Below, in pieces: positions 4,037 through 58,728 of a stretch of 64,000 bases of DNA. A program made the translations under genes and the position numbers. Origin of the DNA: an uncultured Actinomycetota bacterium (GTDB taxonomy: Bacteria > Actinomycetota > Actinomycetes > DATJPE01); assembly GCA_963819985.1 (NCBI GenBank), contig CAWFYH010000004.1:466713-530712 (forward strand), given 5' to 3'. The stretch's first letter is position 1. Every line of letters begins with the position of its first letter. The notes under the pieces were generated by a model. The model was not told the origin of the DNA. It did no database searches and was given only the letters and a program-made list of their open reading frames with translations.

Positions 4037-4069
4037 CGAGCCAGCGTCGGGGAATGGGAGGGTGGGCTG

Positions 4070-23216: not shown

Positions 23217-23591
23217 ATGAAGCGCCTGCTCGCCTTCAGCGTCCTCGCCGCAGCAGCCGTCGTGCCTGCCGTGGTTGGGCTCGCCGGAAACGCATCCTTC
23301 GCGGAGACAGTCCCGGTGCGCGTCCCAGCGCAGGCCCAAGTCGAGGATGACCCCGGTAGCAAGTCAGCCCACCTCGAACCCGGCGATGACGGAGACGACT
23401 CCAGGCACCACGAAGACGACTCCAGACACCACGAAGACGACTCCAGACACCACGAAGACGACTCCAGACACCACGAAGACGGCGACTCCAGACACAATGG
23501 GGACGACTCCAGACACAGCGAAGGCGACGACTCCAAACACCACGAAGACGACGACTCCAGACACAGTGGGGAGGGCTCAGGCCACTCGTGA
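23217..23591 (+). CDS. secreted His/Asp-rich tandem-repeat protein
   Basis: GAGGAG RBS. Signal peptide MKRLLAFSVLAAAAVVPAVVGLAGNASFA. Then about seven copies of the 8-aa unit DDSRHHED (and variants). Stop overlaps the start of the sensor kinase gene. Confidence 0.7.
   Translation: MKRLLAFSVLAAAAVVPAVVGLAGNASFAETVPVRVPAQAQVEDDPGSKSAHLEPGDDGDDSRHHEDDSRHHEDDSRHHEDDSRHHEDGDSRHNGDDSRHSEGDDSKHHEDDDSRHSGEGSGHS
23394..23570 (+). repeat. 24-bp tandem repeat array (~7 copies; gacgactccagacaccacgaagac) inside the His-rich protein gene
   Basis: Head-to-tail 24-nt units visible directly in the sequence, in frame. Copies vary at a few positions (aggcac/agacac, cacgaa/aatggg/agcgaa). Confidence 0.85.
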
Positions 23592-39986: not shown

Positions 39987-42029
39987 ATGCCTGATGACAG
40001 CGTGCCTCGCGGCACCACCGATCCTGTCGCCACGCTCGTGCGCGAGCAGGCCTTCTTGGCCAAGGCCCGCGGCGACCTGGCAGCGATGCGTGAGCGAGTG
40101 CTGGCACTCGATGCGGTCGGAGGCGACGCCATCTCCGACGGCTACCTCGCCGCCACCCTCGAGCATCGCGCCCGCTCCCTTGTCGACAACCCCGACGTCC
40201 CGCTGTTCTTCGGGCGCATCGACTCCCAATCCGGGCGTTGGCACATCGGCCGACGGCACGTCCAAGACGAGCTCGGCGAGCCGGTAGTCGTCGACTGGCG
40301 TGCCGACGTCTCGCTCGCGTTCTATCGCGCGACCAGAACCGACCCGATGGGAGTAGCGCTGCGTCGCCGGTACGGCTTCGAAGGCGGCCGACTGACCGCC
40401 TACGAGGACGAGCACCTCACCGACACCACCGAGATCATGCAACGCAGCGCGATCCTGGCTGGAGAGATCGAACGTCCCCGCACCGGTCCGATGCGCGACA
40501 TCGTCGCGACGATCCAGCCCGAGCAAGATGCCCTGGTCCGTGCCGACCTCAGCGAGTCGCTGTGCATTCAGGGGGCCCCCGGCACCGGAAAGACAGCCGT
40601 CGGACTGCACCGCATCGCCTTTCTGGTCTACACCTTCCGTGAGCGGCTCGGTCGCAGCGGCGTGCTCGTGGTCGGCCCGAACCGAGCCTTTCTCTCCTAT
40701 ATCGCCCAAGTACTCCCAGCCCTCGGCGAGTACGAGGTGGAGCAGACAACCGTGGAGCAGCTCACCGGCGGCGACCGGTTCCGGCTGCGATCGGTCGACA
40801 CGACCGAGGTCGCGCAGCTCAAGGGCGACGCCCGGATGGCGACGGTCTTGCGCCGGGCGGTCTGGTCCCACGTTCGAGCACCGACCGAGCCGCTGATCGT
40901 GTCCGTCGGATCCCGCCGCTGGCGAGTCCCGACCTCGCAGGTCGCTCGGGCCGTCGAGGCATTGCGCGAGCGAGACGTGCGGTACGGCGCCGGCCGGGCG
41001 GTGCTGGGTCAACGCCTCGCCCACGAGGTCCTCGTCGCCATGGAGCGTCAGGGAATTGTCACAGACGACCGCGACCAGGATCGCGTAGCCCGTACGCGTG
41101 ACATGAAGGCATACGTCGACACGATCTGGCCGCGCCTGGATCCGACCAAGCTGGTGATGCGGCTGCTGGGCGAGCAGGATCTGCTCGAAGACAGTGCCCA
41201 GGGCGTTCTCTCCCAGGAGGAGATCACCGCCCTGCGTTGGGCAGACCCGGCGCGCGGCCCCGCCTCGGCTCGGTGGGCGGCAGCCGACACCGTGCTCATC
41301 GACGAGGTGGCCGACCTCATCGAGCGCACCCCGAGCCTTGGCCATGTCGTGCTCGACGAAGCACAAGACCTTTCACCCATGCAGCTGCGGGCGGTGGGGC
41401 GGCGGGCCAGCACGGGCTCGATCACCGTGCTCGGCGATCTCGCCCAGGGCACGACACCATGGGCCGCCACCAGCTGGTCCGAGGCGTTGACGCACCTGGG
41501 TCGTCCAGACACACCCGTTGCAGACCTCACCCGAGGCTTTCGGGTCCCTGCCGCCGTCATCGATTTCGCCGCTCGACTCCTGCCACACCTCGACGTGCAG
41601 CTCGATCCGCCGACGTCCGTGCGCGCCGATCCAGGATTGCTCGAAGTGGTGGCGGCCGAATCACTGGCGGCGTCGGTGGTCTCCGCGTGCCGCGCAGTCC
41701 TTGACTATCCGGGCTCGGTCGGAGTCATCTGCGCCGATGCTTTGGCCAGCGACCTAGGAGGCTGGTTGGAGGACGCGGCGCTCGAACCGGTGGTGCTGGG
41801 CGACGAGATGACCTTCGCCGCCGATCTCACGATCGTGCCGGCCTCCCTCGCCAAGGGCCTGGAGTTCGACCACGTGGTAGTCGTCGAACCAGCGGCCATC
41901 GTGGCGGCGGAGCCACGCGGTCTCAACCGGCTCTACGTCGTGCTCACTCGAGCTGTCTCCGGCCTGACCGTTGTCCACGAACGGGCCCTGCCAGCGGAGC
42001 TCAGCCCGCAACTGCTCACGATGAGATAG
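39987..42029 (+). CDS. HelD-like UvrD-family helicase (helicase IV / RNA-polymerase-associated, HelR-type)
   Basis: 680 aa. N-terminal HelD-specific domain (FFGRIDSQSGRWHIGRRHV), Walker A GAPGTGKTAV, and UvrD-like 1A/2A domains with the characteristic split. ATG behind GGGAGGAG. Confidence 0.8.
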   Translation: MPDDSVPRGTTDPVATLVREQAFLAKARGDLAAMRERVLALDAVGGDAISDGYLAATLEHRARSLVDNPDVPLFFGRIDSQSGRWHIGRRHVQDELGEPVVVDWRADVSLAFYRATRTDPMGVALRRRYGFEGGRLTAYEDEHLTDTTEIMQRSAILAGEIERPRTGPMRDIVATIQPEQDALVRADLSESLCIQGAPGTGKTAVGLHRIAFLVYTFRERLGRSGVLVVGPNRAFLSYIAQVLPALGEYEVEQTTVEQLTGGDRFRLRSVDTTEVAQLKGDARMATVLRRAVWSHVRAPTEPLIVSVGSRRWRVPTSQVARAVEALRERDVRYGAGRAVLGQRLAHEVLVAMERQGIVTDDRDQDRVARTRDMKAYVDTIWPRLDPTKLVMRLLGEQDLLEDSAQGVLSQEEITALRWADPARGPASARWAAADTVLIDEVADLIERTPSLGHVVLDEAQDLSPMQLRAVGRRASTGSITVLGDLAQGTTPWAATSWSEALTHLGRPDTPVADLTRGFRVPAAVIDFAARLLPHLDVQLDPPTSVRADPGLLEVVAAESLAASVVSACRAVLDYPGSVGVICADALASDLGGWLEDAALEPVVLGDEMTFAADLTIVPASLAKGLEFDHVVVVEPAAIVAAEPRGLNRLYVVLTRAVSGLTVVHERALPAELSPQLLTMR

Positions 42030-43440
42030 CTAGCTGACCGCGGAGGGCGATTGCGAAGGTCTCCAGGTTGGCGACGAACCGAGCGACGTCCTCGTCGGTG
42101 TGCTGCACCGACATCGTCCACTGCTCGCACTTGCCCCACGGCGGCAGAAACACGTGACCGTTGTGCTGATAGAGCCAATGCGCATTTCCCCACTGGTCGT
42201 CATAGCCGAGGAAGTCGCGATAGTCGTTGAGGCGATTGGTGAAGATGACTGCGCCCTTGGCCCCGAAGGACTGCACGTAACCTGGCAAGTCATAGCGGCG
42301 TAGCACGTCCTCGCAGCCGCTCACCTGCTTGACCCTGAGGCGCTCGAACTCGGTGTACGCCTCCTCGGTCAGCACGTCCTCGAGCATGGCCCGCGATGCA
42401 GCCATCGTCAGTGGGTTCCCGTTGAAGGTGCCGACCTGCTCATAAGTCTTGTCGGTGACGAGATTCATGACCTCAGGTACGGCACCGATGGCACCGCACG
42501 GCAGGCCACCACCCATCGCTTTGGCGATGCACACGATGTCGGGGATCACCCCTGACAGCTCGGTCGCCCCACCGAAAGCCACGCCGAAGCCCGTCTTCAC
42601 CTCGTCGAAGGCGAGATAGGCCCCGTGCGCGTGGAGGAGCTCCTTGAGGGCCTGGAGGTAGCCCGGAGGGGGCGGGATCATGCCGATGTTCATCATGATC
42701 GGTTCGACGATCATCCCGGCGATCTCGCCGCGGTTCTCGACGAGCACCTGCTCGACGGTTCCAAGGTTTCCGAACGGCACGATGATCGTCAGGTCCGCGA
42801 CGGCCTGCGGGATCGACGCAGCTGCCCGAACGGACTTGGGTCGATCCACTGGGCCGACCTGGTCGTCCTCCGGGTAGACCGAGACCTGCGCAGAGTCGTG
42901 GTGCCCGTGATAGCTGCCCTCGATCTTGATCACCTTGTCGCGCCCCGTGGCGATCCGCATCAGGTGGAATGCGTCCATGGTCGACTCAGTGCCCGAGTTG
43001 TTGTAGCGCCACAACGGGATCCCGAAGCGTCGGGTCAGCTCACGCGATACCGGGATGACATCCTCGGTCGGCTGGGCGAAGTGCGTGCCCAACTTGACCC
43101 GCCGGGTCACGGCCTCGACGATCGCCGGATGAGCATGTCCGGCCAAACCAACGCCGAAGCCGCCGTGGAAGTCCGAGTACTCAAAGCCGTCGACGTCCCA
43201 GACGCGAGAACCGGCGCCGTGACTGATCCAGATCGCTGCCGGAGGCGCGTCCTGCCAAGACGAGGCAACTCCCCCGGCCAAGGAGGCACGAGCCTGCTCA
43301 CGCAATGCCTGCGAGGCGGTCGTCCTATCCAGGACGATCTGCTCCTGCTCGACGATCAGCCGATCCATCGCCACCAGGTCCGCGTCGGGCGTGTGCTCCT
43401 GTTCTGCAACCGCGTGAGTCGACGCGTCGGTGAGCGTCAT
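42016..43440 (-). CDS. class-III (omega / GSA-aminomutase-like) PLP-dependent aminotransferase
   Basis: 474 aa with the class-III aminotransferase fold (SYHGHHD, the EVKTGFG lysine region). ATGA overlap with the upstream oxygenase gene. Confidence 0.8.
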   Translation of the reverse strand: MTLTDASTHAVAEQEHTPDADLVAMDRLIVEQEQIVLDRTTASQALREQARASLAGGVASSWQDAPPAAIWISHGAGSRVWDVDGFEYSDFHGGFGVGLAGHAHPAIVEAVTRRVKLGTHFAQPTEDVIPVSRELTRRFGIPLWRYNNSGTESTMDAFHLMRIATGRDKVIKIEGSYHGHHDSAQVSVYPEDDQVGPVDRPKSVRAAASIPQAVADLTIIVPFGNLGTVEQVLVENRGEIAGMIVEPIMMNIGMIPPPPGYLQALKELLHAHGAYLAFDEVKTGFGVAFGGATELSGVIPDIVCIAKAMGGGLPCGAIGAVPEVMNLVTDKTYEQVGTFNGNPLTMAASRAMLEDVLTEEAYTEFERLRVKQVSGCEDVLRRYDLPGYVQSFGAKGAVIFTNRLNDYRDFLGYDDQWGNAHWLYQHNGHVFLPPWGKCEQWTMSVQHTDEDVARFVANLETFAIALRGQLAISS

Positions 43441-44666
43441 GCTCGGAAGCTCCGTTCGGCGGCGAGAGAGCCCTCAGATACAGGCGGTGGGTCGGCGGAG
43501 ATGGGCGTGCCGTCGCGGTAGGCACGAGCCAGCTGTTGGGTGAACGCCTGAAGAACGATCTCGTGAAAGCTCGAGAACGGCCCAGGGACGAAGGAGCGGG
43601 CTGTCACTCCACGCTGCACCGACTCACAGGCCGTCCAGTCCTGTCGATTGGTCAGGTCCCAGAAGTCGACCGCGTAGGACGGGCTGAAGCCTTCAAGGTC
43701 GAAGGCCTCCGCCGGGAACAACCACTGGCACTCAACCTTGGTTCGGTCGGCCGCCAACGGTTCCATCCGATGGGTCATGACGTAGTCGGGATGCAGGCTC
43801 ACCAGCAGGTTCGGCGTTACCTGCACATAGATCACGTCGCGCAGCCGGCCAGGCGGGACGCTCGGGATCGGCACACCGTGCGAGACACCGTCGAGAGACA
43901 TCGTCTCGTTCCCCTCGATCAGCTCCATGTCCCCGCCGATCCAGGACCCGCGTCCGAGCATGGATTCACCCGAGGTAGGCGAGGACACGCGGCACAGCTC
44001 GGGATGGATCGACACGCAGTGGAAGCACTCGTGGTAGTTCTCCACGATCAACTTCCAGTTCGCCTCGAGTTCGTAGGCGTGCGTCGCAGCGACCATGAGA
44101 GAACGCGTGCTGTAGCGGTCGAATATCTCGCCCAACCCATCCAGATGGTCCGCCAGCGGAGCGGCGTCTCCGGACAAATTGATCATGACAAAGCCTTGCC
44201 ACTCCTCGATTCGCACGCCGTTGAGCGAGAACGGCGTCCGATCCGGAACGTCATCGCGATGCAGCGGGGGAACACCCTTCAGCTCACCTTCGAAGTCATA
44301 CACCCAGGCGTGGTAGGGGCACACGATCGCCTTGCCCGTGGTGGCTCCACCACACGGCAGCAATTCATGACCTCGGTGCCGGCAGGAGTTCGAGAAGCCA
44401 CGCAGCACGCCATCGTTTCCTCGCACCAGCAAGACACCCTCGTCCCCGACGGTGACCGCGCGCTGCTGTCCTGACTCAGCCAGCTCATCAGCACGCCCGG
44501 CGCAGACCCAGCCGCGCCGGAACAGGAAGTCCCGCTCCCACGCCAGGACCTCCGCATCGACGTAAGCGGCTCGCGGCAGCATGCTGCCGCTCGTCTCAAG
44601 GTCGAGTACGGGCTCGAGCTGGGCCGGGTCGACCGGCGCCGGGATCGACGTTTCTACGCTGCTCAT
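43437..44666 (-). CDS. Rieske non-haem iron oxygenase, alpha subunit (no beta subunit present)
   Basis: CRHRGHEL...CPYHAW Rieske motif, and a mononuclear iron site (EN.HE.FH...D) in the C-terminal catalytic domain. Confidence 0.85.
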   Translation of the reverse strand: MSSVETSIPAPVDPAQLEPVLDLETSGSMLPRAAYVDAEVLAWERDFLFRRGWVCAGRADELAESGQQRAVTVGDEGVLLVRGNDGVLRGFSNSCRHRGHELLPCGGATTGKAIVCPYHAWVYDFEGELKGVPPLHRDDVPDRTPFSLNGVRIEEWQGFVMINLSGDAAPLADHLDGLGEIFDRYSTRSLMVAATHAYELEANWKLIVENYHECFHCVSIHPELCRVSSPTSGESMLGRGSWIGGDMELIEGNETMSLDGVSHGVPIPSVPPGRLRDVIYVQVTPNLLVSLHPDYVMTHRMEPLAADRTKVECQWLFPAEAFDLEGFSPSYAVDFWDLTNRQDWTACESVQRGVTARSFVPGPFSSFHEIVLQAFTQQLARAYRDGTPISADPPPVSEGSLAAERSFRA

Positions 44667-44679
44667 TTGACGTCCCTTC

Positions 44680-46323
44680 TCAGGTCGAGCGACGGAACCG
44701 GCGGCGCTTGCGGTCGCTCAGCATCTTCGTGCTGCACAGGTAGCCAGCGATGCCGGTCACACCGCCACCGCCATGCGTGGCCGAGGAACACTGGTAGAGC
44801 CCGTCGATCGGCGTCGTGTAGTCGCTGTATCCCGGGGCCGGCCGCATGTGGAACAGCTGCTCGGGGGTGAGCTCTCCGTGGAAGATGTTGCCGCCGATCA
44901 GGCCGTACTCGTGCTCCATCTCGTAGGGGCCGATCACCTGCCGGTGCAGCACCTGCTTCTTGAAACCGGGCGCCAGCTTGTCGTAGAGGTCGATGACCCT
45001 ATCGGCATACGCAGCGAGCTCCTCGGGGTGCGACTCATCGCTCCAGGTGTGTGGCACCCATTGGGTGAACATGGACATCACGTTGGTCCCGTCGGGGCAC
45101 AGGGTCCGGTCAACGGTCGACGGGATGACCGTGTCGCTGAAGGGAGCCGTCGCCGCCTTGCCGGCGCGGGCCTCCTGGAAGGCAGTCTCCACGTACTCGA
45201 GGGAGTCGCACAGCTCGAGGACACCCGTGTAGTCCTCCGGCGCCAGGTCGGGCGCCGAGGCGAACTTCGGCAGACCTTCGATGGCCAAGTTGATCTTCAC
45301 CGTGCCGCTGCGTGACTTCCACCGCTCGATGTCCTCGACGAAGTCGGACGGAAGGTCGCGCCGATCGAGCTGACGGAGGAAAGTGATCTGCGGGTGCGTC
45401 GCAGCCACGACCAAGTCCGCCCTGATCTCGGTCCCGTCGGCCAGTGCGACCCCCACCGCCTTGCCGCCTTGCACAAGGATCCGCTCGACGGGGGCGTTGG
45501 TCCTGATCTCGGCACCGAACGATCGCGCACTGCTCGCGATCGACGCTGACACAGCCCCCATGCCACCGACGGGATAGCCCCAGGAACCCATGGTGCCGCT
45601 CATGGATCCGTCGCCGACATCGCCGATGGAGTGGTGCAGCATGACGTACGCCGTTCCGGGCTCGCACGGTCCGGCCCACGTGCCGATGACGCCGTTGATG
45701 GCCATCATCCCCTTGACCTCGGGCGACTCGAACCAGTCGTCGAGCAGGTCGGCGATGCTCATGGTGAACAAACGCGTGGTGTCTCCCACCTTGCGCACGT
45801 CGAGACCGCGCATGCCCCAGGCCAGCCTGAGCTGGTCGAGCAGGTCACCAGGCCGCTTGGAGCCGACCTTGGGCGGGCTCTTCATGAGCAGCGGCGACAA
45901 GACGTCGGCGATCCCCTTGAGCCAGGCTTCGTACTTCGGGAAGGCGTCGGCGTCCTTCGTAGAGAACTTGCTGAGCTCCTTGTGGTCGTTTGCGTGATCA
46001 CCGTTGAGCAGCATCGAACGGCCATCCGGGAAGGGGATGAAGCTCGGTCCCATCGGGATGACGTTGTAGCCGTGCTCGGGCAGACGTAGCTCCCGCAGGA
46101 TCTGCCCCGGCATCAGACTCATGACGTAGGACAACGCGGTGATCTTGAACTCCGGTCCCCACGGCGTCTCCGTTGTCGCCGCGCCACCGAGGTTGTCTCT
46201 TGCTTCCAAGACGAGTGGCTTCAGCCCGGCCCGAGCGAGATAGGCCGCCGTGACCAGTCCGTTGTGGCCCCCTCCGACGATGATCGCGTCATAGCTACCG
46301 CGTGCGGTGCCCGTGCCGGTCAC
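44680..46323 (-). CDS. FAD-dependent oxidoreductase of the phytoene-desaturase / amine-oxidase (CrtI-like) family
   Basis: 547 aa. N-terminal dinucleotide fold GGGHNGLVTAAYLARAG, and a C-terminal amine-oxidase-like region. Confidence 0.8.
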   Translation of the reverse strand: MTGTGTARGSYDAIIVGGGHNGLVTAAYLARAGLKPLVLEARDNLGGAATTETPWGPEFKITALSYVMSLMPGQILRELRLPEHGYNVIPMGPSFIPFPDGRSMLLNGDHANDHKELSKFSTKDADAFPKYEAWLKGIADVLSPLLMKSPPKVGSKRPGDLLDQLRLAWGMRGLDVRKVGDTTRLFTMSIADLLDDWFESPEVKGMMAINGVIGTWAGPCEPGTAYVMLHHSIGDVGDGSMSGTMGSWGYPVGGMGAVSASIASSARSFGAEIRTNAPVERILVQGGKAVGVALADGTEIRADLVVAATHPQITFLRQLDRRDLPSDFVEDIERWKSRSGTVKINLAIEGLPKFASAPDLAPEDYTGVLELCDSLEYVETAFQEARAGKAATAPFSDTVIPSTVDRTLCPDGTNVMSMFTQWVPHTWSDESHPEELAAYADRVIDLYDKLAPGFKKQVLHRQVIGPYEMEHEYGLIGGNIFHGELTPEQLFHMRPAPGYSDYTTPIDGLYQCSSATHGGGGVTGIAGYLCSTKMLSDRKRRRFRRST

Positions 46324-46438: not shown

Positions 46439-47422
46439 TCAGTAGGTCGGGATCCGTCGAGCAATAAGGTCGTCGGCACGCCCGGACACCTCGCTGTCGC
46501 CAGTGACCGCAGACAAGAAGTCGTCCCGCTCGAGATAGAGCAGGACACAGTCCTCATCTGCGGTGACCGTCGCGGTCCGTGGCACATCACGCAGCAGCGC
46601 AATTTCGCCGAATGGATCGCCAGGGCCGGCAGTCGACAAGGTCTCGCCGGCGAACGTCGCTGTCACGTGCCCGCTCTCCAGCACATAGAAGCGGTCGCCG
46701 GACTCACCTTCCCTGATGATCACGTCACCAGCCGGCACCTCGCGGCGGCCGAGCTGTTGGGCCACAAGTTCCAGCGACTTCGGTTCCAGTGGCGAGAACA
46801 GCGGCACCCTGCGCAGAACGGGCAGGCCTTCCGGTTCACCGAGCGTCTTGTCCAGTCGGCGTAGCCGGACCATCGCGGGCGTCACGATGACCGTGATGAA
46901 CAGGGCCAGCACCGCCAGGGACCAGCGAAGACCCCACAGATGAACCATGACCGGCATCGCGACCGAGCCCAGGGCCATTGCCGTGATCAGGCCGGTCTCC
47001 AGCGCGCCGAAGACCCGCCCCATCACCGAGTCATCGGCCAACCGCTGAATGATGGTCGAAGCGTTGACGTCGACGATGGGATTGGCGAACCCGATGATGA
47101 ACATCGCGAGGAAGGCGGCCCAGAGCTCTGGCCAGATCGCGGCAAGCAGGAGCGGAAGCGCCCAGAAGATGACACCGACCCCGAAGTCCGTGGCCAGCTT
47201 GCGGGCTGAGGCGCGGCCGATGGCGACCAGACCGCCCAGGACCGCTCCGACGCCGAGCACGCTGTCGAGGTAGCCGACGCCCTTGGGGCCGAAGTCGGTC
47301 ATCTGAACAGCGATCTCTACGCTGAACACGATCGACGCACCTGCCACGATCGTCTGTGCGCAGTAGACGAGCGTGACCAACAACAGGTCACGGTTTCGCG
47401 CGATGACCGCAAAGCCAGCCAT
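46439..47422 (-). CDS. C-terminal half of an MFS transporter fused to a cyclic-nucleotide-binding (cNMP/CAP-effector) domain; out of frame with the upstream N-terminal half, so a probable frameshifted gene
   Basis: Six TM helices, then a cNMP-binding domain (FGEIALL...RTATVTA). Together with 47509..48165 it would form a 12-TM MFS-cNMP protein. The frames differ by +1 across a hexanucleotide repeat. Confidence 0.6.
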   Translation of the reverse strand: MAGFAVIARNRDLLLVTLVYCAQTIVAGASIVFSVEIAVQMTDFGPKGVGYLDSVLGVGAVLGGLVAIGRASARKLATDFGVGVIFWALPLLLAAIWPELWAAFLAMFIIGFANPIVDVNASTIIQRLADDSVMGRVFGALETGLITAMALGSVAMPVMVHLWGLRWSLAVLALFITVIVTPAMVRLRRLDKTLGEPEGLPVLRRVPLFSPLEPKSLELVAQQLGRREVPAGDVIIREGESGDRFYVLESGHVTATFAGETLSTAGPGDPFGEIALLRDVPRTATVTADEDCVLLYLERDDFLSAVTGDSEVSGRADDLIARRIPTY

Positions 47423-47460
47423 GGACTCAGCCAGGAACCCACCCTCGTCGGTGCCGGCAA

Positions 47461-47532
47461 GAGACTCAGACGCAGATCCAGACCGAGACTCAGACTCAGA
47501 CTCAGACGTCAGACCTCAGACTCAGACTCAGC
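47461..47532. repeat. imperfect hexanucleotide simple-sequence repeat (GACTCA/GAGTCT)n at the break point of the split MFS gene
   Basis: gagactcagacgcagatccagaccgagactcagactcagactcagacgtcagacctcagactcagactcag. In the minus frame it encodes (SE)n and contains the TGA that ends the N-terminal fragment. Confidence 0.8.
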
Positions 47533-48165
47533 TTCGGCGGGCACCCGGATGCGGGAAACGATCACAGCCGACCAGGCGAAGGTGGCCGCGTTGAACACCA
47601 GGACCGCTGGCACCGAAAGGGCAGTGATCAGGATGCCGCCGAGGGCAGGGCCGACGAAGAAGGCCAGGCTCTCGATCGTGCTAGCCGTCCCGTTGGCTGC
47701 CGTCAGCTCCTCCGGACGCGACACGAGCTTGGGGAGGAGCGCAGCCACCGCAGGCCGAAACGGTGCGGCGACCAGCGAGGTCAGCGTGGCGAGCACGAAG
47801 ATGAAGCCGGCCGGTGCCTCGCCCCAGATGAGCAGGGCCGACCCCACGACAAATGCACCACGAACGACATCGGTCGTGACCATCACGGCCTTGCGTGAAT
47901 ACCTGTCCACGATCGCCGAAGCGAACGGCGTCACGACGGCCATCAGCAGCAGCCGTACGGTCCCCCAGATGCCGACCGCGGTGACCCCGCCGACGTCATA
48001 GGCCCAGACGACGATCGCGGTCGCGTAGGCCCAGTCACCGATCGCGGAGCCGGCAAAGGCCAAGTTGATCCGACGCAGACCTGGGTTCTTGAAGACCGTC
48101 GAGAGCGAGGATCCGGTCTCGCTCAGCGCCGAACCGACTTTGGACATGCGCTCCCCCAACTCCAA
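47509..48165 (-). CDS. N-terminal half (first six TM helices) of the same MFS transporter; ends AEAESESEV inside the repeat tract
   Basis: 218 aa with an MFS signature (DRYSRK loop 2-3). See the C-terminal fragment above. Confidence 0.6.
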   Translation of the reverse strand: MELGERMSKVGSALSETGSSLSTVFKNPGLRRINLAFAGSAIGDWAYATAIVVWAYDVGGVTAVGIWGTVRLLLMAVVTPFASAIVDRYSRKAVMVTTDVVRGAFVVGSALLIWGEAPAGFIFVLATLTSLVAAPFRPAVAALLPKLVSRPEELTAANGTASTIESLAFFVGPALGGILITALSVPAVLVFNAATFAWSAVIVSRIRVPAEAESESEV

Positions 48166-48286
48166 GACTCGACCCGCACACGAGACGACGCGGGCACGAA
48201 CCTAGTGCTCTGCTCAGCTAGGCACAGCGCTTCGTCGATATTCGGACCTGGCCTGGTTGACCCGTGTTTGGCAGACTGGCCGGCGG

Positions 48287-48314
48287 CTGACTGTCTGTTC
48301 AGTCAGTTGACTCG
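48287..48314. promoter_or_regulatory. operator-like motif copy (minus-strand CTGAACAGACAGTCAG, overlapping a plus-strand GTTCAGTCAGTTGAC) 13 bp upstream of the acyl-CoA dehydrogenase GTG
   Basis: Same CTGAAC-N4-AGTCAG core as at 46379 and 49645. Sits in the divergent region between the MFS fragment and the ACAD gene. Confidence 0.5.
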
Positions 48315-48326
48315 AAAGGACCCGCC

Positions 48327-49514
48327 GTGGACTTCGCCTACTCCCCACAGCTCGCAGACCTCTCCGACCGGGCGACCCGGTTGGTCGCGGCGATCGAGCC
48401 GTTCGAGTTGAGCTGCGAGTTCGACAACGGCCTCGACGCCAACGCGCACGAGACGATAGCCAGTGCCGTACGGGCCGAGTCTCTGCACGCCATCAACATG
48501 CCGACCGAGTGGGGAGGCCAGGGACTCACCTTGCTCGAGCAGGTCGTGGTCCAGGAGCGGCTCGGACGGTTGACCAATGCGCTGTGGGACTGCGTCTGGC
48601 GGCCGGCGAACGCCCTCAAGGCCTGCACCGAACAGCAGCGCGAGCGGTGGCTGCTTCCGGGGATCCAAGGCCAGCGCCGAGACGCGGTGGCGATCACCGA
48701 GGAGCTGGCGGGCAGTGACCCGCTGGCCATGCGGACGACCGCGCGGCGAGACGGCGACGACTGGGTCATCGACGGGGTCAAGTGGTTCGTGACGGTGGGC
48801 GACGTCGCCGACTACCTGCTCGTCCTAGCCCTTGCGGGTGAGGATCGGGCCGCCACCATGTTCCTGGTCGACAAGGACACCCCAGGTGTTTCGATCGCCC
48901 GAACTCCGCGCTACATGCACACGTTCGTCTACGAGCACCCCGAGTTCGTCCTGGACGGCGTGCGAGTGAGTGACAGCCAACGCCTAGGCGAGATCGGCCA
49001 AGGCTATGAGCTGACGCGCGACTGGTTCACCGAGGAGCGGTTGATGATCGGAGCTCGTACGATCGGCGCAGCCGAACGGGCCTTGCAAGAGGCAACCGCC
49101 TGGGCGACAACGCGCGAGCAAGGTGGCACAACGATCGCGAACCACCAGCTCATCCAAGGCATGCTCGCCGACTGCGCCGTCGACATTGCCACCAACCGAG
49201 CGCTGGTCCACCAGGTCGCCTGGGAGGGGAGCCAGGGGATGGATCGCAAGACCCTGCACGCCAAGGCTGCGCTGGTGAAGCTGGCCGCGTCCGAGGCCGC
49301 GGGACGCGTCGTAGACCGCTGCGTCCAGATCTTCGGGGGGCGCGGCTACATGCGTGAGTACGCCGTCGAGCGGCTCTACCGCGAGCTACGCGTCGATCGG
49401 ATCTGGGAAGGCACCTCCGAGGTTCAACGCCTGATCATCGCCAACGAGATGGTCAAACGCGGTACGGATGCTCTGCTCTCCCTGTCCCGACCGCCCGCCG
49501 CTCCCCAGGCGTAG
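48327..49514 (+). CDS. acyl-CoA dehydrogenase family protein
   Basis: 395 aa. ACAD N-terminal, middle and C-terminal domains, and the terminal IYEGTSE-type motif (WEGTSEVQRLIIA). Confidence 0.85.
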   Translation: MDFAYSPQLADLSDRATRLVAAIEPFELSCEFDNGLDANAHETIASAVRAESLHAINMPTEWGGQGLTLLEQVVVQERLGRLTNALWDCVWRPANALKACTEQQRERWLLPGIQGQRRDAVAITEELAGSDPLAMRTTARRDGDDWVIDGVKWFVTVGDVADYLLVLALAGEDRAATMFLVDKDTPGVSIARTPRYMHTFVYEHPEFVLDGVRVSDSQRLGEIGQGYELTRDWFTEERLMIGARTIGAAERALQEATAWATTREQGGTTIANHQLIQGMLADCAVDIATNRALVHQVAWEGSQGMDRKTLHAKAALVKLAASEAAGRVVDRCVQIFGGRGYMREYAVERLYRELRVDRIWEGTSEVQRLIIANEMVKRGTDALLSLSRPPAAPQA

Positions 49515-49644
49515 CCGGACTCGATCCGCGCCAGACCACAGACTCATCACGATTTGGTCCGCATGAACCCCAGTGCGCGCACCGTGACTGACAATGGCCC
49601 AGCAAACACCACCCTTGTCATCGGCGCTCGTTCTCGACAGACTT

Positions 49645-49663
49645 AACTGAACAACCAGTCAGG
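49645..49663. promoter_or_regulatory. operator-like motif copy AACTGAACAACCAGTCAGG upstream of the ABC transporter substrate-binding protein gene
   Basis: ~50 bp upstream of ATG 49715. Third copy of the shared motif. Confidence 0.5.
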
Positions 49664-49714
49664 AGAGCCCGACTACGGAGACCCGACAGCCCCTTGCTCC
49701 CAGGAGGACCCGGC

Positions 49715-51007
49715 ATGCCTTTCGATCCCAAGCCCACCGACCGAGCCCCGCAGAGGCGACCGCAGCTGGCCCGCCGCGACGTCCTCCGGCTCGGAGGCTT
49801 GGCCGCCGCTGGCCTGACGGCCGCACCCCTGCTATCCGCCTGCTCGCGCGACTCGAACAACACCGCCACCACTGGCGGCACCGGCGCCTCAGGCGGCACC
49901 GGCGACGGGCCTTACCCGCTGGCGCGCCCGGATGCGCCGGTCACCCTGCCGATCTTCGACGACACCCCGGCGATTGCCAGCGGGCAACAGATCGAGAAGG
50001 TCTCCGCGCTGCGCGTGCTGAACTACGCCGACTACATCGCCCCCAAGGTGAAGAAGCAGTTCGGGCAGAAGTACGGCGTGGAAATTCAGGTCACTCCCTA
50101 CAACAACTATGACGAGATGCTCACCAAGCTCACCGCGCCCGGCGCCGCGTTCGATGTCGTCTTTCCAGGGCCGAGCTATCTGAGCCGCATGGTCTACGGC
50201 AAGCTCCTGCAGCCTCTCCAGCATTCCTACGTACCCAACCTGAAGAACGTCTGGCCGGAGTACGAGGACCCGTGGTACGACCAGGGCTCGCAGTACACGG
50301 TGCCCTACACCGTCTACACCAGCGGTATCGGATATCGCACCGACCGCGTCACCGACCCCTCCGAGGGTTACAAGATGCTGTGGAACAGCGCTTACTCCGG
50401 CAAGATGGGCGTTCTCGACGATGCCGGCGAAGCGCTCGCTATGGCGATGCTGGCCTGGGACATCACGCGTGACATCAACACGGCCGATCCCGCGCTGGTC
50501 CAAGCCGCCCAGGACAAGCTGGACGAGCTGATCCCGCTCGGGGTGAAGGTCGACATCACGCAGTACGAAACGATCGCAAGCGGCAAGTTCACGGTTCACC
50601 AAGCCTGGTCGGGCGACATGATCGCAGCCAGGTGGTATCTGCCGAAGGGTGTGAGCACCGACGTCCTTGGCTACTGGGTCCCCGAGGCCAACACCGACCG
50701 CGTGATCGGGAACGACAACATGGCGATTCCCGCGTCCTCCCCATCACCTGTCCTGGCACACACCTTCCTCAACGAGCTGCTCGACAACGATGTCTCCGAG
50801 CTGAACTTCAGCTGGAACGGCTACCAACCCCCCCTCACGAAACTGACCGCCGACTATCTCATCAAGCAGGACTACATCAAGTCGAACATGATGCCCGCGG
50901 TCGTCGTCCCCGCAGATTTCGCCTCAGAGCTCCAGTTCTTCGAGCGACCGCCTGCGGTAGAGAACATGTGGCTGGCCGCCTTCCAGGCGTTCCAGAGTGG
51001 CGGCTGA
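49715..51007 (+). CDS. Tat-signal lipoprotein; polyamine-type (PotD/PotF-like) ABC transporter substrate-binding protein
   Basis: ATG behind CAGGAGGA. RRDVLRLGGLAAAGLTAAPLLSACS Tat/lipobox. PBP2 PotD/PotF-like body. Confidence 0.8.
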   Translation: MPFDPKPTDRAPQRRPQLARRDVLRLGGLAAAGLTAAPLLSACSRDSNNTATTGGTGASGGTGDGPYPLARPDAPVTLPIFDDTPAIASGQQIEKVSALRVLNYADYIAPKVKKQFGQKYGVEIQVTPYNNYDEMLTKLTAPGAAFDVVFPGPSYLSRMVYGKLLQPLQHSYVPNLKNVWPEYEDPWYDQGSQYTVPYTVYTSGIGYRTDRVTDPSEGYKMLWNSAYSGKMGVLDDAGEALAMAMLAWDITRDINTADPALVQAAQDKLDELIPLGVKVDITQYETIASGKFTVHQAWSGDMIAARWYLPKGVSTDVLGYWVPEANTDRVIGNDNMAIPASSPSPVLAHTFLNELLDNDVSELNFSWNGYQPPLTKLTADYLIKQDYIKSNMMPAVVVPADFASELQFFERPPAVENMWLAAFQAFQSGG

Positions 51008-51911
51008 GGTTTTAGCGGGGGGGCGACGCGACGCCTCGACCCGCTTTCTATGGCCGATCCTCGCGCTTCCGGGAACGGTCTGGCTCATCTTGCTCTTCCT
51101 GGTGCCGTTCTACGGGATCATGGCGGTCGCCTTCTCGAGCCAGCTCGACCTCCTCGGTCAGCCCATCCCCGAATGGAACCCTGCCTACTGGGACTTCAGC
51201 GTCATGCAGTCGGTGCTCAGCCAGTCGGTGGATGGGATATATCGGTCGGCCTGGGAGCACACGTTCATCTACTGCGCTATCGCCATGTCGATCTGCGTCC
51301 TGGTGGGCTACCCGGTCGCCTACTACGTGGCGCGTCTCGCAGGCGGCAACCGTGGCCTGCTGCTCGCGCTGATCCTGGCCCCGTGGTGGATCAACTACCT
51401 CACCCGAATGCTCGCGTGGGTCGGGATCCTCGGCGACGAGGGCTACGCCAATGACATCGTCACCAAGTTCGGGTTCGCCAAGGTCGACTGGCTGGGCGGG
51501 CAGTGGTACGTCGTCGTCGCCGGCCTGGTCTACGGCTACTTGCCGTTCTTCATCGTCCCGCTCTACGCCTTCCTCGACCGCATCGATCAGCGCATGATGG
51601 AAGCCTCGCGCGACCTGGGTGCTAACGGCTTTCGTACCTTCTTCCGGGTGACCTTGCCATTGAGTCGGGTCGGTCTGATCACCTCGCTGGTCATCACGGC
51701 CCTTCCGATGTTCGGCGACTACTACACGAACACCCTCGTCTCGAACTCTCCGACCACCGTCATGATCGGCAACTCGATCGAGAGGTCGATCCAAAGCGGC
51801 TTCTCCAGGTCACAAGGAGCCAGCCTGGTTCTGCTGCTGTCGGCGGTTCTCCTCGTGTTCATGGCGTACTACCTGACCATGACCATACGAACATCACGGG
51901 CGGCTCGATGA
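50997..51911 (+). CDS. ABC transporter permease (PotB/PotH-like)
   Basis: Six TM helices and an EAA loop (EASRDLGANGFRTFFRVTLPL). Confidence 0.8.
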   Translation: MAAEVLAGGRRDASTRFLWPILALPGTVWLILLFLVPFYGIMAVAFSSQLDLLGQPIPEWNPAYWDFSVMQSVLSQSVDGIYRSAWEHTFIYCAIAMSICVLVGYPVAYYVARLAGGNRGLLLALILAPWWINYLTRMLAWVGILGDEGYANDIVTKFGFAKVDWLGGQWYVVVAGLVYGYLPFFIVPLYAFLDRIDQRMMEASRDLGANGFRTFFRVTLPLSRVGLITSLVITALPMFGDYYTNTLVSNSPTTVMIGNSIERSIQSGFSRSQGASLVLLLSAVLLVFMAYYLTMTIRTSRAAR

Positions 51912-52894
51912 CCACCATCGGGATCGACTCGCCGGACGCCTCTAAGGCATGGGACGAACGCGGTCGCTACGTCCCCCCACCGACATCGGTGAAGCCAGCC
52001 AAGAAGGGGTTCGTTCCGCCTTGGCGAAACCCTTGGCGCCGCCCCTACGTCCTGGCGACGATCACCTGGGTCTACGTGGCCTGGAGCCTCGTGCCAGTCC
52101 TCATTGCGATTCAGTTCTCGTTCAATGACTCCCGGTCTCGAAGTTCGTGGAACGGATTCACCACCGACTGGTATTGCTGCGGGGGCCCCGACTCCATTGC
52201 CGCCGGTGCATCCGTTGCCGAAGACCCAGCGCTGCTCCTCTCGCTGAAGAACAGCCTGATCCTCGGTGTTCTGGCCACTCTCATCTCGGTGCCCATCGGC
52301 ACTGCGCTCGCCCTGGGCCTGACCAGGTGGCGCTCCCGGACCAGCAACGTGGCCAACGGCGTCTCGCTGTTCCCCCTCGTTACACCCGAGCTCGTTCTCG
52401 GATCAGCGCTCTACCTGGTGATCACCAACCTCTACGTCGGGATCGGACTCGGTCGTACGGCGCTGCTGCTCGGCCACATCACGTTCTCGATCTCATTCAT
52501 CCTGGTCATCGTGCGTGGTCGACTGGTCAGCATCGGCCCCGAGTTCGAGACCGCAGCTCAAGATCTAGGCGCCACGCGCATGCAGGCGATCCGCACCATC
52601 CTGCTTCCACTGCTGGTTCCCGCCATCTTCGCAGCGGCGATGATCACCTTCGCCGCGTCACTCGACGACTTCGTTGTGAGCAACTTCCTGTACGGCGACG
52701 CGAGCAACATCACCGTCCCGGTCTTGCTGTACAGCGCGGTCAAGGCGGCGCCGTCCCCGGCCCTCAATGCTCTGGCCACCATCTTGCTGGTCGGAACGAT
52801 GACCGCCCTGGTGCTCGCCTACATCGTCTTGCGGTTGCGAAGAAGGGGCGAGGGAGGCTCAGCCCTGGACGACCTGGCCGGCATCGAGATGTAG
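51908..52894 (+). CDS. ABC transporter permease (PotC/PotI-like)
   Basis: ATGA-coupled to the preceding permease gene. EAA loop AAQDLGATRMQAIRTILLPL. Confidence 0.8.
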   Translation: MTTIGIDSPDASKAWDERGRYVPPPTSVKPAKKGFVPPWRNPWRRPYVLATITWVYVAWSLVPVLIAIQFSFNDSRSRSSWNGFTTDWYCCGGPDSIAAGASVAEDPALLLSLKNSLILGVLATLISVPIGTALALGLTRWRSRTSNVANGVSLFPLVTPELVLGSALYLVITNLYVGIGLGRTALLLGHITFSISFILVIVRGRLVSIGPEFETAAQDLGATRMQAIRTILLPLLVPAIFAAAMITFAASLDDFVVSNFLYGDASNITVPVLLYSAVKAAPSPALNALATILLVGTMTALVLAYIVLRLRRRGEGGSALDDLAGIEM

Positions 52895-52944
52895 CTTCAG
52901 TCGCAGACTGGATCGAGCACAGCACGCCTCTCGGCTGAACCGAC

Positions 52945-54090
52945 TCAGCCGGCCGCAGCCACCGGGCCACTGTCGGTCCACGCGTGGTCCTCGGAGTGCT
53001 CGAGCACTCGCAAGGCGTCGGAGAGCATGCGCACGCGGCAGGCGTCACCGGAGCTCCACGGCTCCTCGTGCACGGCATTGGTGACCAGGGACTGCACGGA
53101 GGAACCATCCGGCAGTCGTACAAACACCTGCGAGGTCGAGCCCAGGTAGACCACGCGTTCGACCATCCCCGGCACCCGGTTGTCCCCGGTGCCGTCACCC
53201 TCTTCGAGGTGGATGCTCTCCGGGCGGATGACCGCCCGCCCCAGCCCAGTCGGGAACCCCTCTGGAATCTGAGCATCAAGGGTGAACTCACCCAGGCGGA
53301 CACGGCCTGTTCCTCCGCCGCCGGACTCGACCGTGACATCCAGCAGGTTGGCGACACCGAGGAAGTCGGCGACGAACTCGCTGCGCGGAAACTGGTAGAT
53401 GTCGCGCGGGGCGCCGAGCTGCATGATCCGCCCCAAGCTCATGACTGCCAGTCGGTCCGACATCTCCAGGGCTTCCTCCTGGTCATGGGTGACAAAGACG
53501 AAGGTGATGCCGACCTCGCGCTGAAGGCTTGTGAGCTGGGCTCGCAATGAGTGGCGGAGCTTGGCGTCCAACGCGCCGAGTGGCTCGTCGAGCAGCAACA
53601 CCGAGGGCTCGAGCACGAGGGCTCGGGCCAGTGCGACCCGCTGCTGCTGGCCTCCCGAGAGCTGGCTGGGACGGCGCTTGGCATATTCCGACATCTCCAC
53701 GAGCTCAAGGGCGGCATCCACCTTCGGCTTCCGCTCGCCCTTGCTCACATCCGCCCAGCGCAGCCCGTACTCGACGTTCTTCCACACATCCATGTGTGGG
53801 AACAGCGCGTAGCTCTGGAAGACGGTGTTCACCGGCCGCTTGTGCGGCGGGGTCTGGGCCACGTCGGTGCCATCGATCATGATCTGGCCGTCCGTGGGCT
53901 GCTCGAAACCGGCCAACATCCGAAGGGTGGTCGTCTTGCCGCAGCCGGAAGGCCCGAGCAGCGAGAAGAACTCTCCCGAAGCGATGTCGAGGTCGATCCC
54001 GTCCACCGCGATCGAGCCGCCCTCGAACTCCTTGCGGAGCCCTCGAATCGCGATCGATCCGCCGCCGGTCCCCTTCGCGTCGTCAGTCAT
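52945..54090 (-). CDS. ABC transporter ATP-binding protein (PotA/PotG-like, with a C-terminal TOBE-type domain)
   Basis: Walker [10 protein letters not shown], signature [15 protein letters not shown], Walker B LLLDEP. Convergent to the permease genes. The first ~110 codons of the ORF lack a protein-like pattern, so ATG 54090 (or 54117) is the likely start. Confidence 0.8.
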
Positions 54091-54171
54091 GAACAGGAGT
54101 TTAGGTGTGCTCGCCATCCTGCGCGCAGACAATGCTGAGTATTCAGACAGGCTCTCGCTACTCTGCTCGGG

Positions 54172-54579
54172 ATGAGCGAACACGGCACCGCGGAGGGGCA
54201 CAGCGCCGCCGAGCTGGACGCCGCTCTCGGGCTCACCCGGGCCGCCGACGACGGCAACCGAGCGGTCTTGCGCCTGGACCCGTCCGATTTGGCCATCGGC
54301 GCCACGGACCCGGTCGCCTACCTGCACGGCGGCGCACTGGCGACGTGCGTCGACACAGCCGCCTGGGAGGCCGTCGTGAAGGAGAGCGCCGAGAGCTGGG
54401 TGGTGGCCGACCTGCGTATCGACTTTCTTCGGTTGGCCCGGGCGGAGCCGCACCGAGTCTCCGCGGTCGCTCGAAGGGTCGGTCGGTCACAGGCTGTGGC
54501 CGACGTCGAAATCGCGTCGTGGGACGACCCCGGACGTGTGGTGGCCCTCGGCCGAGTCGCCCTGACCAGGGTCGGTTGA
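54172..54579 (+). CDS. PaaI-family hotdog-fold thioesterase
   Basis: 135 aa with the PaaI-like pattern (HGGALATCVDTAAWEAV...VADLRIDFLR). Confidence 0.65.
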   Translation: MSEHGTAEGHSAAELDAALGLTRAADDGNRAVLRLDPSDLAIGATDPVAYLHGGALATCVDTAAWEAVVKESAESWVVADLRIDFLRLARAEPHRVSAVARRVGRSQAVADVEIASWDDPGRVVALGRVALTRVG

Positions 54580-54580
54580 G

Positions 54581-56581
54581 TCAGCCGACGGTGAAGGTCC
54601 TGGGCGTCGAGCAGTCGCTCACGTTGCCTGCGGCATCCTCGGCCTCGGCGCTGACGGAGTACGTCTCCGGGGTCAGCGGACCGAGCGCGATGCCAGCCGC
54701 ACCGAAGGCACCGGCTGTCACCGATCCCACGGCCGGACCGGTGCAGTTGGAGCTGAGATAGACCGTCACCGTGCTGCCGGGTTCGGCCGTACCCGTGGCC
54801 AGCGGGTCTTGATCCGGACCGTCGGGGATCGGCTCGACCTCTGGCGCATCCGGGGCGGTGGTGTCGACCTCGAAAGCGAACGGGTCGGAGCAGTCCCCGA
54901 TATTGCCTGCGCCGTCGGTCGCCCGCGCGACCACCTGGTGTTGGCCATCGGCCAGGTTGGGGAGCCCACTGATCCCTGGTCCGGCAAACGTTGCGGCCGA
55001 GCCCGCCGCATCTGCACCGCCCGCGCAATTCGCCCCGACCCATACCTGCACCTGAGAGCCGGCTTCCGCCGTACCCCTGACCAGCGGTGCGGAATCAGTC
55101 GTGGGTGACCCGCCGACGATGCCCAGTCCGGTCGGCTTGTCCGGGCCGATGGTGTCGATCACCAGGGGTAGCTCGCTACAGGAGCTCACGTTCCCGGCAG
55201 CGTCAGTTGCGTTGAACCGGATCGTGTGGGGCACATCGGGTGTCAGCGGCCCCACTGAGACACCAGCAGCAAGCTCAGCCGGCGTGAAGATACCGATGGG
55301 GGTTGCGGAACAATTGGTGTCGACGAACACCTTGACCTGGGAACCCGCCTCAGCGTGGCCCGTGACCTTCGGCGAAAGGTCTTGGGTCGGGCTGGTCGGC
55401 ACCGATGCCAAAGCGTCGGGGGCGTCTGGGGCGATGTCGTCATGGACGTAGGTGAACGGGTCGGAGCAGGCAGTGTCCGTGCCACCAACGGTGTTGGTGG
55501 CACGCACCGACACGACATTTGCGGTGTTGGCCGTCATCGGCACCGTGATTCCCGGGTCTGCGAACTCCGTCGCCGAACCTGAGGCGATCGGTGTGTCGCT
55601 GCACGAACCGTTCCCGAAGACCTGAACAGTCGATTCCGCCGGCGCGATCCCGATCAGCTTGGGGTTCTGGATCGGGCTGGGACTCGGCGGGTTAGAGGAC
55701 AGGATCTGCGGCTGCAACGGGCCATCGTCGTCAAGCAGGGTCATCGACGTGGGGTGCGACGGCAGCTTGACGTGGGAAGGTTTCGACCAGGCGATCGTGA
55801 AGGTCTCGTCGGGCTCATCCTTTGCGTCGCCAAACACGTCAACCTTGATCTTCTTGGTCGTTTGCCCTGGCTTGAAGTTGAGGACGGCGCTTCCGCCGGC
55901 GAGGTCGGTGCCGAGCGAAGCCGCACCGCTGATGAGCTTGTAGCGCGCCGAGATGGGCTTGCCGCTGGGCGCCGACAGCACAACGGCGATCTTTCGCTTG
56001 ATCGGCAACGTCGAGGTGCCCTCGATCACCGTCCGGGTCGGCACGGTGATCTTGGGGCGCGGATCGTCGTCGCGAATCGTCGCGGTGGCATTGGGTTTGG
56101 CGATCTTGACCCCGCCGGACGCCTTGCTCAGGCGGACTCGGAAGGTCTCCTTGAACTCGTCGAGGGCGTCGGCGTTGACCCGCACGAACAGCACTGTCGA
56201 GGTCGCGCCCTTGGGGATGCTGGCCTTGGTGCCCTTGCGCACTGGCTTGAAGTCTCCAGCCGACGCCGAGGCAGTTCCCGCCTTGGTGCGCCAGGAGAAG
56301 GTGATCTTCTTGGGGGCCGGCTTCGACAGCCGTACCGAAAATGCCACGAGCCCCTGACCACCGGTGCCCTCGACCAGTGTCGCGTCGTAGACGCGCAGCT
56401 TCAGGGTGGCCGCGGAGGCTGGTGGCGCTGCCACGACAACTGTCGCCAAACCGAGCGTCACCGCGACGAGCGCCACCCACAGACGGCGTACGGCTCGCGG
56501 CACGTGGCACTCCCCCGGCGGAACGGGACCTGCTGGCTGATCGGCAGCTGACGTGCACCCACGATGCCAGACCAGCGCCAC
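54581..56581 (-). CDS. large secreted protein with Calx-beta and repeated Ig-like (Big) domains
   Basis: Signal peptide (VALVAVTLGLATVVVAAPPASA). Calx-beta-like segments (ATIRDDDP..., TLLDDDGP). Four copies of a ~90-aa unit containing GTAEAGSQV.V.V..NC...P.G and ATDAAGNVSDCS. The true start is probably an internal GTG near 56500. Confidence 0.65.
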   Translation of the reverse strand: MALVWHRGCTSAADQPAGPVPPGECHVPRAVRRLWVALVAVTLGLATVVVAAPPASAATLKLRVYDATLVEGTGGQGLVAFSVRLSKPAPKKITFSWRTKAGTASASAGDFKPVRKGTKASIPKGATSTVLFVRVNADALDEFKETFRVRLSKASGGVKIAKPNATATIRDDDPRPKITVPTRTVIEGTSTLPIKRKIAVVLSAPSGKPISARYKLISGAASLGTDLAGGSAVLNFKPGQTTKKIKVDVFGDAKDEPDETFTIAWSKPSHVKLPSHPTSMTLLDDDGPLQPQILSSNPPSPSPIQNPKLIGIAPAESTVQVFGNGSCSDTPIASGSATEFADPGITVPMTANTANVVSVRATNTVGGTDTACSDPFTYVHDDIAPDAPDALASVPTSPTQDLSPKVTGHAEAGSQVKVFVDTNCSATPIGIFTPAELAAGVSVGPLTPDVPHTIRFNATDAAGNVSSCSELPLVIDTIGPDKPTGLGIVGGSPTTDSAPLVRGTAEAGSQVQVWVGANCAGGADAAGSAATFAGPGISGLPNLADGQHQVVARATDGAGNIGDCSDPFAFEVDTTAPDAPEVEPIPDGPDQDPLATGTAEPGSTVTVYLSSNCTGPAVGSVTAGAFGAAGIALGPLTPETYSVSAEAEDAAGNVSDCSTPRTFTVG

Positions 56582-56651
56582 TTCTCGAAACCGGCGAGTG
56601 GACCCCCGCCGATGGGCCGATCGGGTGACCCAGCTCCCCTACCAAATGCGA

Positions 56652-56683
56652 GAAGGGCGGTCCCCCATCGGGGGACCGCCCTT

Positions 56684-56684
<1 letters not shown>
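56652..56684 (-). terminator. 15-bp-stem / 3-nt-loop GC hairpin followed (on the minus strand) by a T-containing tract; putative groEL terminator
   Basis: GAAGGGCGGTCCCCC-ATC-GGGGGACCGCCCTTC is a perfect inverted repeat located after the repeat array downstream of groEL. Confidence 0.55.

Positions 56685-58728
<2,044 letters not shown>

Follow-up and report, generated by a model that had tools for sequence, protein, structure and literature searches.

A 12-TM MFS transporter gene with a cyclic-nucleotide-binding domain, interrupted within a hexanucleotide repeat in an uncultured actinobacterial contig

The window, a 64-kb stretch of DNA that was analysed as a whole, carries on its minus strand a transporter gene whose two halves lie in different reading frames and meet in a hexanucleotide repeat. 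The locus raises the question of whether the gene itself is broken or only its sequence as assembled. The first-pass annotation had offered slipped-strand phase variation, a recent pseudogenisation and an assembly error at the repeat; the last two stood as live explanations, and the first was dropped on account of the 6-nt repeat unit. A consensus or polishing error in a long-read metagenome-assembled contig was judged the probable cause, with modest confidence, and a real, very recent frameshift was retained as a substantial minority possibility. The most fitting reading of the frame break is one of data quality, and its biological weight is small.

The six-helix MFS half and the six-helix MFS half with a cyclic nucleotide monophosphate (cNMP)-binding domain were recovered in different frames, and the imperfect 70-bp hexanucleotide repeat, (GAGTCT)n encoding (ES)n, was present at their junction, all at the coordinates given in the first-pass annotation. 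The features were as follows:

47509..48165, minus strand, N-terminal half, ORF with a TTG start, 218 aa, six TM helices of the MFS N-domain
47509..48147, minus strand, N-terminal half from the ATG start, 212 aa, ending ...RIRVPAEAESESEV at the TGA at 47509-47511
46439..47422, minus strand, C-terminal half, 327 aa from the first ATG, six TM helices of the MFS C-domain and a cytoplasmic cyclic-nucleotide-binding domain (CNBD)
46508..46744, minus strand, cyclic-nucleotide-binding domain, Pfam PF00027, 75.9 bits, residues 468-546 of the reconstructed protein
46571..46612, minus strand, phosphate-binding cassette FGEIALLRDVPRTA, fitting FGE[LI]AL...R[ST]A
47462..47531, no strand assigned, imperfect hexanucleotide tandem repeat (Tandem Repeats Finder: period 6, 11.3 copies, 83% matches, 6% indels, score 87)
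47508..47515, minus strand, frame-break site, two adjacent 7-nt units, GAG[G]TCT and GA[C]GTCT

The ATG at 48147 is a likelier start than the TTG at 48165, because homologues begin with MSKVG or MSRVG. The N-terminal half matched Pfam MFS_1 with 69.8 bits over profile positions 3-177 of 347 and gave no cNMP_binding match. The C-terminal half matched both MFS_1 (46.2 bits) and cNMP_binding (76.7 bits, cut-off 27.5). Its frame is offset from that of the N-terminal half by +2/-1 and stays open upstream to 47515, where it reads GLTSESESESRSGSASESLAGTDEGGFLAESMAGF...; it opens just past a TGA at 47518-47516, and the two open frames overlap by 7 nt only (47509..47515). In the homologue alignment, the Met at 47422 corresponds to the conserved internal 'ESMAGF' Met of the family, and the ATG of the C-terminal half is thus an ancestral internal Met and no newly evolved start. 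It lies 87 nt past the stop of the N-terminal half and has no well-spaced Shine-Dalgarno sequence (GAGGGTGGG ends about 15 nt upstream).

On the minus strand the repeat reads GAGTCT x2, GAGGTCT, GACGTCT, GAGTCT x3, CGGTCT, GGATCT, GCGTCT, GAGTCT. It is the sole period-6 array in the window and is far beyond chance: an 18-mer of three units had three matches with at most two mismatches, against 0.01 expected in shuffled sequences. Its translation is ...AEAESESE... in the N-terminal frame and ...SESESESRSGSASES... in the C-terminal frame, and the encoded (ES)n stretch belongs to the disordered central cytoplasmic loop. The extra bases are, in plus-strand numbering, the G at 47508 and the C at 47514/47515. 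The spacing from AGGAACCCACCCTCGTC to GCTTCGGCGGGCACCCG is 81 nt as sequenced, and the in-frame lengths are 79 +/- 6n.

When both extra bases were deleted in silico, an ORF of 568 aa was obtained, in which seven GAGTCT units are perfect; the alternative repair, in which one base is missing within 47512-47515, restores the frame equally well. A single uninterrupted ORF of about 560-600 aa, which is a feature of the family, is absent from the sequence as it stands and appears after the removal of 2 nt or the addition of 1 nt. The reconstruction aligned over 100% of its length with MFS-cNMP homologues and was colinear with their single ORFs, which bears out the earlier view of one MFS-cNMP gene broken at a repeat.

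The reconstructed gene is predicted to encode a 12-TM exporter-type MFS transporter (DHA3/MFS_3-like) with a C-terminal cytoplasmic CNBD. Its Pfam scores were 107.8 bits for MFS_1 (cut-off 33.4) and 75.9 bits for cNMP_binding (cut-off 27.5), and the residues of the cassette were invariant in alignments of 17 and 22 sequences. The best NCBIfam match was TIGR00900 (DHA3-type H+ antiporters, E = 1.9e-44); EntS, Mef and Tap were matched less strongly. The TIGR00900 score was 152.5 bits against a curated cut-off of 319.6 and all NCBIfam scores were far under their cut-offs, so the protein is no equivalog of any named pump. The DHA3-type efflux pumps (TIGR00900 / MFS_3; EntS, Mef(A), Tap) thus resemble it in the best NCBIfam match and the MFS fold, but they have no CNBD.

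The layout of six plus six TM helices and a CNBD is supported by the AlphaFold model of an intact homologue, P0001 (76% identical, mean pLDDT 78.7), in which six helices, a loop at 206-238, six further helices and a beta-roll CNBD are predicted. The loop is disordered in the model, with pLDDT below 50 (around 30). The MFS part of the model superposed on the exporters SPNS2, VMAT, MdfA and NorA with target-normalised TM-scores of 0.74-0.80, and the CNBD part gave fold matches to PKA/PKG/HCN; no solved structure with both MFS and CNBD was found by structure comparison of this model. Binding of cAMP (or cGMP) at the CNBD is predicted to modulate transport by the intact protein, a prediction drawn from the domain identity and the conserved cassette and from nothing further.

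With the reconstruction as the query, 2,212 proteins were retrieved at E <= 1e-20 among 8,000 scored candidates. Almost all of the best 120 of these 2,212 homologues were 556-603 aa long and combined MFS with cNMP_binding at 100% query cover, and their alignment was colinear except in the central loop, which was hypervariable in length and sequence. Fusions of this kind (MFS-CNBD, PF07690 + PF00027) are widespread in Actinomycetota. The reconstruction has the same domain order, length and canonical cassette as these fusions, and the window gene differs from them by its interrupted ORF and by an (ES)n linker repeat unseen in the aligned relatives. Larger multi-domain examples are Rv3239c and Rv3728 of M. 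tuberculosis; a literature search for functional work on MFS-CNBD proteins, these two among them, returned nothing mechanistic and no characterised member. A cNMP-gated MFS transporter had been called unusual in itself, which does not agree with more than 2,200 homologues and with a 2023 review in which MFS-CNBD fusions already appear in a list of uncharacterised regulatory fusions (PMC10710835). Within the MFS-CNBD family, which is very large, uncharacterised and already catalogued, the window gene is unexceptional, and the locus adds nothing special to the family-wide question of cAMP-regulated efflux in Actinomycetota.

A genome scan gave 46 loci of the family: 36 that were 62-91% identical to the reconstruction and 100% covered, in Nanopelagicales, Actinotalea, Longivirga and other uncultured Actinomycetes, and 10 distant ones (48-53%) that were nearly full length. 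The nearest relative, L001 (MAG MFD05442.bin.1.346), shares 91% aa and 85.7% nt identity and a synteny that extends across 13.7 kb. Its ORF of 565 aa is intact, with the linker VAEVEVKAADEGADGAADSGRGEDADEGG and no ES repeat. The linker of a JGI fragment, P0034 (91%), also differs from that of the window, and the (ES)n repeat therefore arose recently, as an expansion specific to the lineage of the window. In-frame tandem repeats with periods of 6, 9, 12, 15, 21 or 24 recur at the loop position in many orthologues. The loop can thus accommodate repeat growth, and it evidently lengthens and shortens through in-frame slippage.

The synteny with L001 extends to the genes around the transporter:

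42016..43473, class-III aminotransferase
43437..44717, Rieske oxygenase alpha subunit
44680..46323, FAD amine oxidoreductase
48327..49514, acyl-CoA dehydrogenase
49694..54486, Pot-type ABC importer

These neighbours look like an amine catabolism cluster, and the transporter had been linked to a 'catabolic regulon' in the first-pass annotation. The neighbourhood is common to the window and L001 only; the other 45 loci lack it, and a functional link therefore finds no support. The neighbours that recur beside orthologues are one or two divergent paralogous MFS-CNBD genes, which the window lacks.

It had also been proposed that a change in repeat length would restore or break the frame. In slipped-strand phase variation, the locus would act as a contingency locus in which such changes switch the transporter ON and OFF, and a tandem repeat in a coding region does lie at the frame break, as in the phase-variable SSR genes of Neisseria, Haemophilus and Campylobacter. 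The unit of 6 nt is, however, a multiple of 3: slippage by whole units always stays in frame, and the shift is caused by two surplus single bases, so a defining property of phase variation is missing. In addition, the tract as sequenced is imperfect and nowhere holds more than three perfect units in a row, the break lies mid-gene and away from the 5' end, the closest relatives have no such repeat and the other orthologues carry only in-frame repeats in the loop. The host is a free-living environmental actinobacterium, unlike those of the known SSR genes. Phase variation was accordingly considered very improbable.

The C-terminal frame is -1 relative to the N-terminal frame, which is compatible with programmed -1 ribosomal frameshifting that would join the two frames during translation. 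The 7-nt overlap (GAG GTC TGA) contains no X XXY YYZ slippery heptamer, however, and this mechanism was therefore excluded, its probability being rated as negligible; nor was the two-frame arrangement conserved in any relative. Programmed and phase-variable mechanisms of any kind were together allowed a very small probability at most.

A frameshift could also be real and tolerated, with the N-terminal six-helix half and the C-terminal six-helix half with its CNBD both being made and reassembling into a working transporter. The break lies precisely within the disordered central loop that joins the six-helix bundles, the sole position at which a cut in an MFS protein is possible, an in-frame ATG opens the C-terminal half, and both halves look fully constrained. 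Lactose permease split in its central loop is said to reassemble into a working transporter (reported by Bibi and Kaback in 1990). Against this stands the distribution among relatives. Two separately conserved genes had been named as the observation that would overturn the idea of a single broken gene, but no separately conserved halves with their own start and ribosome-binding site were found among the 46 loci or the best 120 homologues listed; the relatives are single ORFs save for five frameshifted copies of an error type, which are described below. Furthermore, the ATG of the C-terminal half coincides with the ancestral internal Met, and its ribosome-binding site is weak or absent; together with the 87-nt gap, this would make re-initiation poor. 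A tolerated split was therefore regarded as improbable, and a natural 'split MFS' caught at birth, in which a hypermutable (ES)n loop repeat would, through indels, have given rise to two reassembling polypeptides, as something even less to be expected.

An error of assembly is suggested by the broken copies among the relatives. Frameshifts were present in three of the 46 loci, L034, L035 (two shifts) and L036, all of them in Microflora Danica (MFD) MAGs. This corresponds to 3 of the 23 MFD loci, compared with 0 of the 23 loci from short-read MAGs or isolates (one-sided Fisher p about 0.12, not significant alone). Two further broken copies from ENA 'contig_N' records, L052 and L053 (the latter with three shifts and beside a split alpha-amylase), were fetched from fragment matches and stand outside the 46-locus set. 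All five of these frameshifted copies come from Nanopore-type 'contig_N' assemblies and are broken elsewhere than the window gene. Their breaks are 1-nt insertions outside homopolymers, and two of the sequence contexts recur: L034 and L053 share CCC[G]GCC, and L035 and L036 share CT[T]CGTGAT. Independent real mutations are not expected to repeat their contexts, so the recurrence points to a systematic error, and both contexts may merit reporting to those who polish such assemblies.

The MFD MAGs were produced from Nanopore reads only, with Flye assembly and one round of Medaka polishing (PMC12313526), and gene-fragmenting indel errors in Nanopore-only assemblies have been described (PMC9262707). 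We infer that the window derives from a Nanopore-only assembly as well, because the profile of its contig record is the same as that of the MFD MAGs, which dominate the relatives and supply the closest of them. Likeness to the described errors lies in single-base insertions that split a conserved ORF, in the five sister copies and in a second anomaly in the window; it is limited in that the classic sites are long homopolymers, whereas the sites in the window are non-homopolymer and the sequencing technology is deduced from the record.

Both called halves are on record from one contig of 655,173 bp only (sources NCBI and ENA). A homology search centred on the junction returned no near-identical fragment besides the two halves themselves. 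JGI metagenome scans with the flanks at a variable gap, and with the 'corrected' perfect repeat plus flank, gave no match, and the exact products of both halves, like that of the flanking oxidoreductase, were traced to no second contig. A Logan contig, L051 (run ERR11594398), was reached via the acyl-CoA dehydrogenase neighbour and matched 47653..51392 over 3,740 bp with 1 mismatch and 0 gaps; it stops at 47653 and leaves the last 120 nt or so before the repeat uncovered, and the reads behind it may be those of the assembly itself.

Under the favoured reading of a consensus or polishing error, the disordered and hypervariable linker would recently have gained an in-frame (GAGTCT)n repeat, encoding (ES)n, in the lineage of the window. 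Two stray single bases in adjacent repeat units would then break the frame, with no regulatory device involved. The error would have arisen in a Nanopore-only assembly of the Flye + Medaka type, possibly helped by heterogeneity of repeat length among the reads.

Several observations count against an artefact and speak for a real, very recent inactivating frameshift, in which one or two indels in the repeat would truncate the transporter after TM6 and little useful C-terminal half would be made. Nanopore errors concentrate in homopolymers, and the inserted bases of the window lie outside them. Tandem repeats are genuine mutational hot spots. About 50 other genes of the window give full-length Pfam matches, and the assembly is otherwise clean and mostly accurate. 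The L051 match beside the gene, with its single mismatch, points the same way. The ATG of the C-terminal half, with its lack of a good Shine-Dalgarno sequence, also fits a nascent pseudogene. On the other side, dN/dS against L001 was 0.064 for the N-terminal half and 0.054 for the C-terminal half, and the polarised lineage-specific aa changes numbered 6 in the window and 7 in L001, all conservative; neither half shows relaxed selection. With no excess of aa changes and such low dN/dS, a pseudogenising event would need to have happened extremely recently. The cleanest reconstruction further requires two independent insertions in adjacent units, the other broken copies that were fetched all belong to Nanopore-only assemblies, and a second frame anomaly (narH) lies within the same 64 kb. 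A nascent pseudogene was on balance considered unlikely, though worth keeping in view. Annotation pipelines will call the locus as two fragments or as a pseudogene, and merging or flagging is advised.

The second frame anomaly is an ORF that joins two genes:

7812..10121, ORF of 769 aa joining NarH to NarJ

NarH relatives end about 15-25 aa past GLFP with an acidic tail. Comparison with the JGI contig L054 (86% aa) shows a surplus of exactly one base in the window, near 9457. The +1 frame of the window narH reads ...DVSGSDDAGDGR*, and its stop overlaps the narJ ATG as ATGA. The 1-nt insertion near 9457 removes this narH stop, which normally overlaps the narJ ATG, and the NarH-NarJ fusion is probably false, arising from a second single-base error.

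A GACGT(C/G) motif near both frame anomalies was considered as the mark of a methylation-linked error and rejected, as the motif at the MFS site is created by the inserted base itself. Overlapping ORF pairs elsewhere in the window had also raised suspicion, namely photolyase/ParA, kinase/regulator pairs, SDR/NlpC and helicases; all proved to be separate intact genes.

Other copies of the transporter gene, in Nanopore-only assemblies, carried 1-nt insertions that caused frameshifts, located at ~6390 in L034, ~7290 in L035, and ~7400 in L036 (loci from MFD MAGs), and at ~3908 in L053 (an ENA 'contig_N' locus). The insertion contexts recurred among these four loci, CCC[G]GCC being found twice and CT[T]CGTGAT twice, which suggests that the consensus of those assemblies contains systematic errors tied to particular motifs.

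A reading-frame anomaly was also observed among the nitrate reductase genes of the window, where the beta subunit NarH and NarJ were joined with no stop between them:

4037..7780, NarG, intact
7812..10121, + strand, NarH-NarJ joint ORF, 769 aa
10118..10864, NarI, intact
10906..12117, NarK-like MFS gene, intact

Sequence comparison with the close JGI relative L054 revealed one extra base in the window, and the break was placed near 9455-9460. In the +1 frame, the NarH C-terminus was read as ...DVSGSDDAGDGR*, with the stop overlapping the narJ start codon as ATGA. The joint ORF probably results from another one-base error in the assembly, the second in the window, and not from a true fusion.

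The FAD amine oxidoreductase adjoining the transporter (44680..46323, - strand) was 99% identical at the aa level to its orthologue in the nearest relative locus, L001 (7794..9404), while the genes flanking it displayed only 85-96% identity between the two. Exceptionally strong constraint could account for the 99% identity, as could a recent transfer or recombination event involving the window and L001 lineages. In many loci (L004, L005, L008, L017, L019, L021, L043, and others), one or two extra MFS-cNMP genes (~28% identical) directly adjoined the transporter orthologue on the opposite strand, so that paralogues of this family are often found in clusters. Only a single copy was present in the window.

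Two further tandem repeats were detected. An intergenic one (56680..56951; 89-nt unit, 3.1 copies, 98% identical) was flanked by a Big_13/Calx-beta surface protein gene (54581..56638, - strand) and groEL (56934..58670, - strand). The other, a lysine-rich (KKDK...-type) 12/24/30-nt repeat (18741..18818, + strand), was within a 167-aa ORF (18475..18978), which had no Pfam match and was preceded upstream by a ParA-like ATPase gene.

A third repeat was found in a short ORF:

23217..23591, + strand, 124-aa ORF, signal-peptide-like N-terminus and His/Asp-rich repeat

The repeat comprised ~8 copies of a 21-nt (7-aa) unit (DDSRHHE). The ORF was directly upstream of a sensor kinase gene (HisKA_3; 23588..25024) and a gene for a response regulator of the LuxR type, and its product could be a secreted metal-binding protein coupled to a two-component system.
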